From Escherichia coli (GTDB lineage: Bacteria > Pseudomonadota > Gammaproteobacteria > Enterobacterales > Enterobacteriaceae): DNA of 64,000 bases. Position numbers: made by a program. Location of the stretch: NCBI RefSeq assembly GCF_045037415.1, contig NZ_CP173440.1; one strand, given 5' to 3'. This document shows positions 27,001-33,000 of this stretch, piece by piece; positions within the stretch are counted from its first letter, which is position 1, and each line of letters begins with the position of its first letter.

Positions 27001-30000
27001 AACTAATGCGTTCAGTAAAACAGGTGGTCAGGCTTCTCAGCTTTCAATGAGCAGCAGCCTCAACATCGACGGAGGAGTGCTGTCTGACACGATGAGCAAA
27101 CCTGCCACCGAGAAATCTGTTGGCGACTTTTGGGCGTCACTTGGCGGAAACCGCGAAGCTGCAGTTGCAGAATGGAAATCCATGAAGGATACATTGAACA
27201 GTAGCAATACACTGGGAGACACTAAGAATGGTAATGATGCATTTGTTAAACAAATGTTTAACAAAGCAGATCAGTTGACCAAGATGGGCTCCGGTGAAAC
27301 AGTGGCGCAAAATCTTCGTGACATTCAGCAAACATCGCAAATGTTTAAAAATGCAATAAGTATGATGGGAGCTAATGCCGGGATTCTTGCACCAGCAGCT
27401 GAAAAACTGGATCAGTTCGTTGGTCTCGGTAGTGGAGGCAACTATGCCAGCCACCAGGAGCAAACGCAGAAAGCCCCTGATACTTCTGCTGTACCGGGAG
27501 CTGGCGACATTTCAGGCAACTTCAATAATCAGCGCAGTCAGGTTACAGGTGGACTAGGCGCACGCCAGGACGCAGCGAAAGCACAGCCTGGTACAACTAT
27601 CGGGGGTATGTCAGCACAATCTCTCAAAGAAGATGATGCGAAACAGTTTATCGCTAATCGGTCTGGTGAGAATGAGGGCAGGATCCTTTCTACAAGTCAG
27701 AGAGAATCGCTTGACAATGTCCGGGAGCAATTGCCTGAGAGCAACCAAAAAGGAACCCTCGAAAAAGCTCTTCAGACAGCTGATAAAGACTCCCTGCCGG
27801 TAAAAATCGCCGGTGGCGTTCAGTCTATAATACTGGGTGATGCAGAGTCAGTAGATTACGACTCAGCAACACAACAAACAATGAGTAATTTGCAATCAAG
27901 AGAACCGCCAAAAAATGCTGAATCATTCCTTCCTTCTGGAGATAAAACAGAGGATGCTAAAGCTACATTAACCCAGGCGGCATTGCATAGCGAAAATGCC
28001 CGACATCAGACTGGCGAGGCCAGAGAGAAAAGCCTTGCCCAGAGTGAAGCCTATCGCGAGTCATATAACAATTTAACCGGTGAAAATCTGACAACGTCTG
28101 ATGTGTCTCGTGTTGCTCGATTAGGCGCAGACGGAAAAAACAATGGATTTGAAAATGGGTTATCAGATGTCGTTAAATCCGTTGTCAGTGGTTCGGGAAC
28201 GACAGGTGCGCGTCCTGCCACCGGTACAGCTGATTATAATCTGGGTGAAGGCATACGTGATAACAATGGGCATGCGCCAGGGATAATGAACAAAATTGGA
28301 GCGGCGGCTGAGAAGGTGGTCGATAATTCACCAGTTTCGCAGCGACTCTTAACTGGAGCTGGTTCGGATCGTCATGTTGCTGATTCAATGAAAATCGGTA
28401 GTGGGCCTTCTCAGGCAACACTCATAGGTAATATGGCTAATAACATTCAACTGGAACAGACAATCGCTAGCGCACAAAGCAGTCCAGGTATTACGGAAGA
28501 TAAATTCAACAGGATGTCAGATCAGAGTCAACATATGATGAGTAATATACAACGCCGTTTATCTGAAGACCCCAGATATGGACCTGAGGCAGCCGCAGAA
28601 TATCCCCAATTTGTAGGTAGCTTACCTGGAAATCTGAGCGAAACGGAGTCATCTGACAGGGCAAAAGAGTTTCTTGATAAGCATAGAAAATCTTAGATAA
28701 AAAAGGCCAGCATTTGCTGGCCTTATAAATTCACTTATCATCCGGGCTAAAGATTTCTTCATTCCTTTTCATGTTGTAATTGTATTCATTAGAGCGCGGA
28801 TCGGACATATCCCAATGACGAATTCTAAACGAGTCCGGGAGAGGGGCTTGGGAAGAAATTACTGAATTTTCAGAACTCTGTTCTGATTTAGCTGTACTCC
28901 GAAAGAGCGGATGCTTACGACCAACAGTGATGTAGCGGTAAACAAGCACTGCCAGGCAAAAGACATAGAAGAGCTCTTTGAAGTCGGCAAGGTCAAAACC
29001 AAACAGTTCGTACATCATTGGGTAGCCCTCTATTCATTCACAATTGATTACATTATAAACTATTTAGCCCCACCACCAACCCCCTATTTTCATCACACTC
29101 GAATAGAGTCTCAACTCAAAAAGGAGAGCTTTACAGCCCATAGTGCATAGTGTATCCGTTGATACACAGATGCTTCCGCTGGCCGATATGAAAAGCAGTC
29201 GTTGTTTATGTGCTGCACAGGTCCGGAAAGTTACTTTTTTTCCACGGCCATCGACACAGCACCCCGGCGGTTCTACCCAATAAATTCTGGGACTCCAGGC
29301 TATCCAGCTTGAGCACTTGCACACGGGAACGACTTTCTATACCAGACGCGGGGCATAACCTATCAAAAACTCGCACTAAACATGGTTCAAGACCCGGGTA
29401 CGATGCCGATATAAGTCACTTTTTTGTACGCGGTGAAAAGTCACTTTGTTGAATGTTTGAAAATGGGGGCTTTGAGGAGGCTTTCGAATATTTATAATGA
29501 GAGACTGTTAAAGCTGCTGGTGGATCTGACATGACATTTCTCAAATCTCTGGACTCGCCGCCGTTCATCGCAACATATCGTTGGGCGGGGTCATTCGATG
29601 GACGGTATATGCCACAGGCATATTCGCTTTTGCTGGAACTGAATCAACACACGTATCTGCCGGTGGTTAAAGCCGAGTTTGATATCTGTATCATCAGCTG
29701 CGGTAAGGAGTGGTGGCGCTTCAGGCTGGTGGATGTGAAATCTGATGAACGTCAGGAAGGAATGGTAACCCGGACGGCATACCGGCTAAAACCGTCAATG
29801 GGGATCGCTGAGCAAATGGTTAACATGATCCGCGCCTGGCAGTCCGTACCGTACCTTAATCCTCCTGCATCTGACTACTTTAGGTAAAGCGTACCTCGCA
29901 GACAGCGACGTGAACGACGCAAAGAACATTCTTGCGGCAGGACATTGCCGTCTGGCTGCAGGAATCCCCGTCCTTTAGGGCGGGGAGGATGTCAACCGTT

Positions 30001-33000
30001 CCGCCAGGGCAGATTTGCTTAACCCAGCCTTTTATCGCATGTCGTACAGTATTTCGACCAGTGACAGTTCTTTAACTGCTCTTTGGTAAGCCCGGATTGC
30101 CTCCGGGGAGTTGAGCAGACTTTCTTTGACCCGGTTAAATGGGATGCCTTTTACTTTCATTAGCTCATCTCCTTCAGGTGCTTTCTCGCTATCTCTGCGA
30201 TCCGCCTGATGACTGGGAAAACCTGATCACTGAACCTGGAGCATCTACTTTGTTGATACATTATACTGTGGGTTTTTCCGTCCGGAACTGACAAAATGCT
30301 ACACTTCGGATTAAAATACATTAGGGAAGATAGTATTTAGAAAGTGATGGGGAAATTATTATGTTTAAAGAGATTAAAAAATGGTTTGTTAAGGGCGTCA
30401 ATTATGAGACTGAGTTCATCGCAGCCGTAAAGCGATCCAAGAAGTGGAAACTTGAAGTTCCTAATATCTCTTTAAAAAAGACTCCATTTCTTGCTGGGGA
30501 AAGGGCTGCTATAGCTTTAAAAGTTATTCAGGACTATGCTTCAATGCATAGCCCGGAGGAAGTATCTCAACAATGTTTTGGGTATATGTATGGAATTCAG
30601 AGTGCTTTGGAAAACGCTTTACAAACTCCACTATATTATACATTAGGTTATATTGAATTTGAAAAGAGAACCAGTGTTTCATACAGAAATTCCAAAATTA
30701 GAAAGGAATTTGTATAATCCAGTTTCAGGCGTTGGGGCGATTGATTTACATGCCTGGCTGACGACTCCTAATCTTGAAATCATTGATCTTACTTTCGCAA
30801 CAACATATGGTATTGTGAATGATATTCCATCAGTAATTGGACGTTCTTCCTTTCAACATTACTCTGAGTTTAATGATAACATGGTCTATCATCCTCAATT
30901 AATCGGCGACGATTATTTGAAGAAGATTGGAGCCATCGTTGATTATAGTTCGTTGAATATTATTATTACGTAGTGCAGATAGCTATCGGTTATTATATAA
31001 CTAGGGGCATTCCTTGTTTTATCAGGCGCTTTGTAAATGTTTTCCTTCAGGGGGTGATATAAGGCGGGTTTTACGGTTAACAAAGCACCTTATTTTCTGA
31101 ATAACGGATTAATAACGCTCAAAATCATATTCTCGGTCAAAATCATAGTTTTTGCCTAGATTTTCATGAAGAGCCTCAACCCTTCCTTCATTTTGATGAG
31201 ACGGTCTCTGTATAGAAACATGAATTCCAGATACACCGGACGAAGCCTCAAAACCTTTAGCCTGTTTTGCGGCAGCACAAGATTGTTTTCGGTTTTTAAG
31301 AACTTTCTGTAAGCCTAGTAAAACGATGGAGAAGGCAAACAGCCCATAAAAACAATAAGTTACATAATCCCAATGCAGAAAATTAGCCATTGTGTATCTC
31401 ATATTTATAGTTGTTGAACACATTAGAGCCTATCGTCCTTGTATAGCCCTTAGCCTCTCTCATTTGATTACATTATAAACTATTTAACCCAGCCTCCAAC
31501 CCCCTGTTTTCATCACCCCCGGATGCAGCCTCAACTCTAAAAGGGGGCTTTACAGGCCATAGTCCATGGTGTATCCGTTGATACACAGTTGTTATCGCTG
31601 ACTGGCTATGAAAAACAGTCGTTGTTTATGCGCTGCACAGGCCCGGAAAGTTACTTTTTTCTCAGCCATCGAAACAGCACCCCGGCAGTTCTACCTGGTA
31701 AATTAAGGGGAATGACGTTTTCTTTTCCCGGCCGGGTAAGCAGACCGTCTTCGTAGTGTGTCAACGGGAGTCACGACGTCAGGAACAGACAGACCAGTGA
31801 GGTTTACGTGAATGAATCATCAATAAAAACCGAAAATGTGTTCCTCTTCTGGAGAGCCATTGAAGCCTTAACCCCTCAGGATATTGATAAGGAAAATGCC
31901 CGCGACAAACTCAACCCGGTTTACAAAGTAGGGGCAGGATCCATGCTTCCCTGGGATGACCCGGAACATACCCGTAAGGATATTGCGCCTGGCAAAGTGT
32001 GGCGCTACTCCGCTCAGGCGGGGGTTTATCATCTGAGCGTGATTACCAAAATGCTGGAGGATAAAATCGGTGCCCATGAAGCGGTACCTGAAGAACGTAA
32101 ATCAGGGAAATGCAGGCTTTTTGATATTGGTTTCAGTGAAGAAGGCATCCCCCAGCCAGCCACGTTCATGTTATCCCTGTCTGCATGGTCGGCGGCTCAG
32201 ATACTCAGGCATGATCGCGGCGTTTACGCTCTTCATGCTCCCCTTTGCTCCGATGTGTCCGACCTGCCCGCACCAAACGACAGCCTCCCGCTGGTGGATA
32301 GCGGTTTTTACGATTTTGATAATCTGACTCTTCATCTCATGCAGTGGGTGGACAATGAGGCTTATCGATTACAGGAGGAGGGACAGAAGGCCGATACAGA
32401 ATGGTTGAAGACGCTTGAGAAGCTGGTCATCGCAAAACTGTATTTTCCGGTAGAAGCCATGGATACGACGATCGTCAGTGTGGTTAAGTGTTCCCTGACC
32501 AGGAAGGCGAAAGTCATCCAGGAAGACAGTGCAAAGAAAGACAATAAAAAGAAAGAAGCGGTGCCCGATGACCTCATTAACAGTTTTTTCATTCAGGAAC
32601 TGCGAAATCTAGACGCGGAGTGGAGGCAAGGAGGGGGTGGGGCCGGTTTTAAAGACTTTATCATGGCGATAACCCGGGATAACCAACAGCGCCTCGATAT
32701 ACGTACTGAAGAAGGCCTGGATTTTGCATTTGAGAAACTGTTGCCCACACAGCCACCAGCTGGCTCCTGGCCTTCAAAGTACCCGCTGGCATTCAGCCAG
32801 CAGCTGGCCGTCAATGAAATCTGGACCAGAAATTACACTGAACCGGGTATTTTTGCTGTAAATGGTCCTCCGGGAACGGGGAAGACAACACTCCTGCGTG
32901 ATGTGGTGGCCGCAGTCGTCACCGATCGGGCGAGAAAACTGGTTAAACTCGGAGACTCTGCATTTAAAGCCAAAGACAGCCTCAAATACGATGACAGGCT

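Follow-up and report, generated by a model that had tools for sequence, protein, structure and literature searches.

Introduction

Exclusion genes are generally found adjacent to their VirB6/TraG targets, and the interacting regions of Eex or TraS and of TraG are reported to be cytoplasmic (PMC11493245). [quoted passage not shown] In the SXT/R391 elements, the S and R groups are determined by a site of three residues in TraG and by the C-terminal residues of Eex (PMC5122569). The exclusion protein of F-like plasmids, TraS, is located in the inner membrane and is matched in its specificity to a variable part of TraG in the donor, and exclusion by the IncHI1 plasmid R27 is due to EexA and EexB, each of which is both factor and target (PMC11493245). 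Here we describe two small genes, P1 and P2, in a stretch of 64,000 nucleotides (contig NZ_CP173440.1 of assembly GCF_045037415.1, deposited as Escherichia coli), which is referred to as a whole as the window. The reading we favour, with a probability of roughly 0.6, is that P1 and P2 encode entry-exclusion factors of the Eex/TraG kind and represent two alleles of a hypervariable slot beside traG. The genes concerned are:

24758..28696, plus strand: traG (TrhG/VirB6-like, 1312 amino acids (aa)), annotated as a TraG_N protein
28703..28724, no strand: bidirectional terminator-like GC-rich hairpin with A-run and T-run flanks, seen in the sequence between the convergent stop codons
28731..29018, minus strand: P1, Y-type, predicted small membrane protein, 95 aa; open reading frame (ORF), RefSeq hypothetical protein; proposed cognate exclusion factor for its own TraG type
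31109..31390, minus strand: P2, W-type, predicted small membrane protein, 93 aa; ORF, RefSeq hypothetical protein; proposed heterologous exclusion allele

Comparison with described exclusion systems

The IncC plasmid used for comparison, pAR060302, encodes a 120-aa membrane protein with about three helices convergently, 38 bp after traG; by its position and the vcrx numbering this gene is identified as eexC (vcrx145 of pVCR94). P1 shows the same arrangement, being located directly downstream of traG (which ends at 28696) and convergent with it, as the initial annotation had stated, across a gap of 35 bp that contains the hairpin 28703-28724. The same slot beside traG is occupied by a P2-type gene in pKP1814-1 (L002) and in the plasmid unnamed1 of KSB1_7E (L003). 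Both the IncC plasmids and the window plasmid are MOBH/MPF_F elements with MobI, and several exclusion groups within one plasmid family, as known for IncC, are proposed here too. EexC resembles P1 and P2, which are predicted membrane proteins, in that a basic stretch is followed by a short acidic and aromatic C-terminal tail. The P2 tail NYDFDREY and the EexC tail SYDFDQRF share YDFD(R/Q)(E/R)(Y/F), a weak likeness of 8 residues (E=0.069) to which the BLASTP match of P2 with IncC EexC is confined; P1 gave E=2.2, so that neither protein has significant similarity to EexC. Unlike the IncA/C plasmids, the window has an IncH-like backbone, lacks AcaCD boxes and carries two alleles stacked in one plasmid.

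According to published descriptions, the exclusion factor of SXT/R391 likewise adjoins traG. Specificity resides in a short part of TraG and, on the side of Eex, in C-terminal residues; in the present locus the variable tails of the small proteins track TraG aa ~570-800 and ~930-1030. The two SXT/R391 groups differ by few residues, whereas the allele pairs found here number at least seven and are deeply diverged, their synonymous divergence (dS) being saturated. No description of two alleles carried in tandem by one SXT/R391 element was found in the exclusion literature examined for these elements. P1 and P2 are proposed to pair with a variable region of TraG as F-like TraS does, but they have no Pfam or NCBIfam match. 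The F-like traS gene is co-directional in the tra operon, not convergent. The closest transfer backbone is that of IncHI1 R27 (50% identity in the TrhG N-domain, the same flanking synteny and the same dispersed palindrome). IncHI1 eexB is listed among the Tra2 genes, and in contrast to EexA and EexB (Tra2), the present slot is located in a Tra1-like region after trhG. Nothing linking exclusion to the present locus was found in the literature searched on pNDM-MAR/IncHI1B plasmids.

The plasmid and its transfer region

The window is assigned to a Klebsiella plasmid of the pNDM-MAR/IncHI5 type with an IncH-like, non-SXT transfer system. In epidemic clones of Klebsiella, plasmids of this type carry genes for carbapenemases and hypervirulence. 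The segment 28600-31850 is, bar one extra base, 100% identical to 59 Klebsiella pneumoniae plasmids (210-460 kb) and matches ~800 further plasmids in part. One of the 59, phvKpST395_NDM1_1657, is of the IncFIB/IncHI1B/IncR type and has a MOBH relaxase, MPF_F and MobI(A/C). We call the backbone IncH-like because the TraG N-domain is present with 90-100% identity in ~590 Klebsiella-group plasmids and shares ~50% identity with TrhG of pHCM1 and other IncHI1/IncHI2 plasmids. No AcaCD-type boxes were found in the window (2 matches at 3 mismatches against 3.8 expected) with the consensus from Table 1 of PMC4207636. An A/C- or SXT-like element was rejected on the absence of these activator boxes and on the IncH-like backbone; the initial annotation had drawn its parallel with SXT-type elements.

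The two small genes

P1 and P2 are annotated as hypothetical proteins in RefSeq entries of identical plasmids. For the conserved head, the ratio of nonsynonymous to synonymous substitution rates (dN/dS) lies between 0.06 and 0.2, for the tails between 0.25 and 0.4 and for P2 between 0.2 and 0.4, and the P1- and P2-type genes are therefore real. The two proteins have a common layout, in which an acidic N-terminal flank is followed by one hydrophobic segment, a basic stretch (+4/+5) and an acidic, aromatic-rich tail. One helix with positive-inside flanks is predicted in each, the Kyte-Doolittle value of the hydrophobic segment being 1.82 for P2 and a borderline 1.55 for P1. Since the hydrophobic core of P1 is short, a single transmembrane segment is likely but not certain in this protein. 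The AlphaFold2 models, which are of modest confidence, are alike in having an N-terminal helix, a disordered linker and a short C-terminal helix (9-31, 42-60 and 76-88 in P1; 3-45, 43-69 and 66-79 in P2). Apart from the borderline helix of P1, these predictions agree with the initial annotation, which had described two minus-strand genes at these positions, each encoding one transmembrane helix and a charged, aromatic-rich tail.

The same annotation had considered the two coding sequences unrelated. BLASTP gave no alignment between P1 and P2 at E<=100, and the profile-profile comparison of the Y family (P1) with the W family (P2) indicated no homology (probability 0.1%). This result is qualified by a natural chimera, protein P0028, which is encoded convergently with traG at 57-293 of a metagenomic contig (L014). 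Its N-terminus is of the W type (MANFLHWDY), its membrane segment is Y-like (LFFIACFVFFIYRFLSVGRKHALF) and its tail is of a third kind, so that it bridges the two "unrelated" families. The chimera hints that P1 and P2 may belong to a single rapidly diverging or recombining family.

The W family comprises 4 clusters, and the Y family 21 at 90% identity. An exhaustive hidden Markov model search of 1.84 billion representatives returned 9 clusters (50%) for the Y family, all from this plasmid lineage, and no remote relatives. Within the Y family, the segment LFYVFCLAVLVYRYITVGRKYPLF, which covers the membrane and juxtamembrane part, is nearly invariant; the linker varies freely, and linker and tail diverge, the tail retaining a loose DxxD(P)RSxEYxY motif. 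Pfam-A scans of P1 and P2 detected no exclusion family, TraS included, at E<=10, and an Rfam scan of 28500-32000 gave only sub-threshold noise. A type I, Hok-like membrane toxin (less than ~60 aa, with an antisense RNA) was rejected since the proteins have 87-101 aa and a long hydrophilic tail.

One variable slot in related plasmids

In related plasmids, traG is followed by a single convergent small gene of either type, an intergenic region called B and a helicase gene oriented as traG. In pKP1814-1 and KSB1_7E unnamed1, the gene at the place of P1 is 91-93% identical to P2. The plasmids pS141.1 (L005) and that of KP102 (L006) have P1-type genes in which the first ~40 residues are the same and the tails differ, and a P1-type variant is also present in pKO41-SIM (L008). 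The very common OW968210-type loci (L004, L011) carry a Y-type gene and then a W-type gene with another tail, which adjoins traG; the Y-type gene is nonsense-mutated in L004 and intact in L011.

Alignment of the intergenic regions showed that B is, in every relative, the conserved spacer that separates the helicase gene from the small-gene slot. The window contains two copies. B2 is the spacer of pS141.1 and the KP102 plasmid and matches them right into the helicase leader, and B1 is the spacer of L004 and runs into a gene of 118 aa as it does there. The two copies thus continue as in different relatives, and the duplication is therefore explained by recombination of two locus types: there are two homologous repeats because the lineage holds two copies of the left part of the locus, each with a different allele. 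The ~1.2 kb between the 118-aa gene and P2 is other DNA with toxin-antitoxin-like remnants and a gene of 203 aa. From these alignments, P1 and P2 are assigned as alternative alleles of one locus, carried in tandem by the window lineage (59 PLSDB plasmids). The initial annotation had seen in this arrangement homologous promoter repeats driving two effectors. The repeats are real, but the description is misleading, B being an ordinary conserved spacer.

A traG gene with a convergent small gene was also observed beside traN, and not after traF-traH, in L009 (4824-9069) and L012 (6001-10267). The plasmid pKP18-2110-2-1 has two TraG matches. Such a pair behaves as a mobile module.

Co-variation of the small genes with TraG

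Among 9-10 loci, the N-domain of TraG (aa 1-~530) has 92-100% identity. In the hypervariable C-half (about nt 26400-28696), identity is 45-99%, and variation peaks at aa ~600-700, at ~950-1025 and at ~1175-1200. We propose the C-half as the exclusion target. In nine loci, the identity of the small-protein tails is correlated with that of the TraG C-half (Pearson 0.89, Mantel p=1e-4), whereas r=-0.22 was obtained with the N-domain. The N-domain of pKO41-SIM has 93% identity, but its C-half has 98-100% and its P1 98.9%, which means that the C-half and the small gene moved as a module. The N-domains of L011 and L014 are 100% identical, their C-halves 66%, and their small proteins are different. 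In the comparison of L005 with L006, the DNA is 92-100% identical outside three separate patches, namely TraG nt 1701-2400 (aa ~570-800), TraG nt 2797-3100 (aa ~930-1030) and the small-gene tail. A single hitch-hiking block is therefore hard to uphold.

The distribution in PLSDB was consistent with this pairing. P1 is present in 94 records (59 at >=99% and 35 at 95-99%), and the window-type TraG patch (aa 560-760) likewise in 94 (59 + 35). A P2-like protein at 90-95% was found in 71 records, as was the L003-type TraG patch at >=99%. P2 at >=95% is present in 59 records, as many as the window lineage comprises (both P1 and the window-type patch have 59 records at >=99%). The overlap of the P2 and TraG-patch counts at record level was checked directly for NZ_CP137372.1 only, in which P2 has 100% identity and the L003-type patch only 64%. 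From the co-variation and the counts, P1 would therefore be cognate to its own TraG, and P2 would be heterologous and cognate to that of a sister lineage; the TraG type proposed for P2 is that of the KSB1_7E/pKP1814-1-like plasmids.

Repeat B, predicted promoters and palindromes

The features of the two B copies are:

29023..29291, no strand: repeat B copy 1, conserved intergenic region of the locus (self-alignment)
-35 TTGGTG 29079..29074 and -10 TATAAT 29057..29052, minus strand: predicted sigma-70 promoter in copy 1 (alignment of B copies)
29150-29167: palindrome GTGTATC-N4-GATACAC in copy 1
29227-29237: dispersed palindrome AAAGTTACTTT in copy 1
31444..31709, no strand: repeat B copy 2, running on into the helicase leader as in single-allele relatives (self-alignment)
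-35 TTGGAG 31499..31494 and -10 TATAAT 31477..31472, minus strand: predicted promoter in copy 2 (alignment of B copies)
31569-31586: palindrome in copy 2
31647-31657: dispersed palindrome AAAGTTACTTT in copy 2

The copies align at 29038-29291 and 31458-31709 with 82-94% identity per block and small indels, and with a weak extension to 29023/31444. Overall, B extends over ~255 bp with ~85% identity, a similarity far beyond chance. The promoter-region alignment of about 255 bp and the dispersed palindrome in each copy (29227 and 31647), both reported in the initial annotation, were thereby confirmed.

The motif TTGG(T/A)G-N16-TATAAT was found on the small-gene strand in 7 of 8 B copies, ~33 nt upstream of the start codon of Y-type genes and ~81 nt upstream of that of W-type genes, and is likely to be the small-gene promoter; in the window, minus-strand transcription would be expected to start near 29045 and 31465. 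It came from the alignment; a generic sigma-70 scan did not flag it because its -35 element fits 3 of 6 positions only. The core-promoter-like part of B amounts to only ~30 bp. The remaining ~190 bp, the dispersed palindrome included, lies further upstream and nearer to plus-strand genes, the distance from the palindrome to the small genes being 170-260 bp.

The sequence GTGTATCCGTTGATACAC occurs once in each B copy and nowhere else in the window. The 11-bp palindrome AAAGTNACTTT, also present once per copy, has 20 sites in the window against 0.14 expected and is the sole enriched 5-N-5 palindrome (the runner-up has 2 copies). Its sites span 2919-37001 and are confined to the Tra1-like region (e.g. 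6429, 19440, 19542, 23365, 23382, 29227, 29437, 31647 and 36046), and about half of them are intergenic and half intragenic. Enrichment was also seen in all related loci and in the Tra1 region of IncHI1 pHCM1 (L007), where 13.5 kb contain 8 sites, whereas 41 kb of IncC contain none. No binding protein was found for AAAGTNACTTT, and a literature search for its sequence gave nothing relevant; it may be bound as an operator by an IncH-specific regulator or a global silencer.

Neighbouring genes and other features

The other genes of the locus and the second copy of the duplicated gene are:

8726..9251, plus strand: other copy of the 118-aa gene unit (self-alignment, 95%/84%)
29361..29887, plus strand: 118-aa gene (29531..29887) with its own upstream region, duplicate of 8726..9251
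30032..30321, minus strand: short ORFs of 42 and 53 aa, with a weak likeness of the first to the N-terminus of a helix-turn-helix regulator or antitoxin
30361..30973, plus strand: 203-aa hypothetical gene, split in the window by a 1-nt insertion
31808..35149, plus strand: SF1 helicase-like gene, 1113 aa, right boundary of the locus in all relatives

The initial annotation had placed a duplicated gene between the two small genes. The duplication was found, but only one copy is flanked by them and the other lies 20.6 kb away. Upstream of a TATAAT box, both copies have a pair of palindrome-like sites 25 bp apart (29412-29447 and 8777-8812); the pair reads TAAGTCACTTT ... AAAGTCACTTT (29412, 29437) in the 29-kb copy and is degenerate in the 8.7-kb copy. 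Searches of Pfam, NCBIfam, PADLOC and PHROGs gave no family match for the 118-aa and 203-aa genes. The short ORFs in 30032..30321 are probably remnants and part of the DNA inserted between the alleles. Compared with all otherwise identical plasmids, the window has an extra A at ~30669, by which the 203-aa gene becomes ORFs of 118 and 106 aa; this is either a real frameshift or a sequencing or assembly error.

Residues 319-1078 of the SF1 helicase fit MkoC, a Mokosh model of PADLOC (E=5e-70), and the protein also matches further models of defence helicases. This plasmid gene, which pKO41-SIM has in truncated form, may have a role in defence or anti-defence. Outside the locus, three ~41-nt direct repeats (CATTAGTAC...AAAAAGTACTAATGAAA) are located at 19582-19723, in the intergenic region upstream of mobI and beside two dispersed palindromes; they may be the origin of transfer (oriT) or binding sites of a relaxosome accessory protein. 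The left end of the window (96..2378) encodes UmuC, a subunit of the error-prone polymerase V, and a RES/Xre toxin-antitoxin pair of the ParT/ParS type.

Discussion

If P1 and P2 are exclusion factors, they would be small inner-membrane proteins made by the plasmid-bearing cell, with a periplasmic N-terminus, one membrane helix, a basic juxtamembrane stretch and a cytoplasmic acidic and aromatic tail. When a donor with the matching C-terminal variant of TraG mates with this cell, the tail would recognise the variant by direct contact and DNA entry would be blocked. P1, matching its own TraG type, would provide self-exclusion. P2 would match the TraG type of the sister lineage, from which it would have been captured along with its copy of B, and would also shut out this rival plasmid group. 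The initial annotation had suggested exclusion or immunity determinants under conserved regulation. The first part is supported by the eexC-like position, by the membrane anchor with a variable tail and by co-variation with the C-half of TraG and not with the backbone; the regulatory framing was given up. The system would be of a known kind, realised in a smaller, non-homologous protein, and its new traits would be the many deep allele pairs and the stacking of two alleles.

Several points weigh against exclusion as the function of P1 and P2. EexC has 120 aa and about three helices, whereas the present proteins have 87-101 aa and one predicted helix, which is borderline in P1. In IncHI1 pHCM1, with the closest backbone, no comparable small gene was found after trhG, and EexA and EexB lie elsewhere. 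Searches of Pfam, NCBIfam, PADLOC and PHROGs matched P1 and P2 to no family at all, and hence to no known exclusion family. In the tails and the TraG patches, dN/dS gave no indication of positive selection, all values being <0.4 at saturated dS; for this reason the variable patches look like old alleles moved by recombination, and not like recent adaptive change. Finally, the co-variation could partly reflect physical linkage, because the 3' half of traG and the 3' end of the small gene are contiguous DNA, and only the patchy difference between L005 and L006 argues beyond this.

Among the alternatives, the small proteins might be donor-side partners of TraG, i.e. subunits which bind its variable C-terminal domain in the assembly or stabilisation of the mating apparatus, with P2 as a useless passenger. 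Adjacency and co-variation with the C-half would be expected equally in this case, as would the joint movement of the pair into the traN context. We nevertheless regard this role as improbable because the foreign allele is intact, and under purifying selection across the 59-record lineage, because the Y-type allele in L004 is nonsense-mutated with a second type beside traG, and because the gene known from this position in IncC encodes an exclusion factor. Moreover, IncHI1 TrhG works without such a gene. Just as improbable in our view is that these are lineage-specific membrane proteins of another function (stress, maintenance, phage interference) in a recombination hot spot, linked to TraG by hitch-hiking. 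The lack of homology to known families, the mosaic surroundings (toxin-antitoxin remnants, duplicated gene, defence-like helicase) and the saturated dS in the patches, as expected of imported old alleles, would fit this explanation. However, L005 and L006 share 92-100% identity in the TraG segment that separates the variable patch from the small-gene tail, so that the divergence does not form one hitch-hiking block, and the position is kept in at least seven allele pairs and two genomic contexts.

A C-terminus and a neighbouring small protein that are both variable recall polymorphic toxin/immunity modules, and the initial annotation had mentioned immunity; this raises the alternative that the C-half of TraG is a toxin-like or contact-dependent effector and the small proteins its cognate immunity. 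This is very unlikely: the variable region of ~750 aa is rich in Ser, Gly and Gln and no toxin domain was found in it, TraG_N being the sole domain on record; the small gene is convergent and not co-directional; and the TraG variable regions of F, SXT and IncC are known exclusion targets (PMC11493245). There is equally little to recommend B as a dedicated operator/promoter cassette that places two effectors under one regulator, for although its conservation over ~255 bp reaches well beyond a core promoter and one of its two palindromes (AAAGTNACTTT) recurs at 20 sites across the transfer region, a single B occupies the same place in each of the relatives with one allele, the continuations of B1 and B2 match different relatives, so that recombination of two locus types explains the duplication, and the dispersed palindrome is nearer to the plus-strand genes.

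Returning to exclusion, we suggest more tentatively, as an idea with the odds somewhat against it, that at least seven ancient, recombining pairs of TraG C-half and Eex-like protein are kept by the plasmids of this Klebsiella family, which dominates clinically, and that some lineages, such as the NDM/virulence hybrid of the window and the common pNDM-MAR-like plasmids with the Y+W tandem, stack a rival's allele as an orphan exclusion gene against competitors which their own system cannot recognise. To our knowledge, the widening of the exclusion range by capturing the allele of a rival has not been described for Eex/TraG systems.

The entry of a plasmid into a plasmid-holding cell is decided largely by exclusion. 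If the present reading is true, typing of the small genes together with the C-half of TraG would define exclusion groups for ~600 sequenced plasmids and would help to explain which plasmid hybrids can form. Dissection of TraG recognition would benefit from the natural allele pairs, at least seven in number, whose variable patches have been mapped, and the stacked alleles would show a plasmid widening its exclusion range by capturing the allele of a rival.

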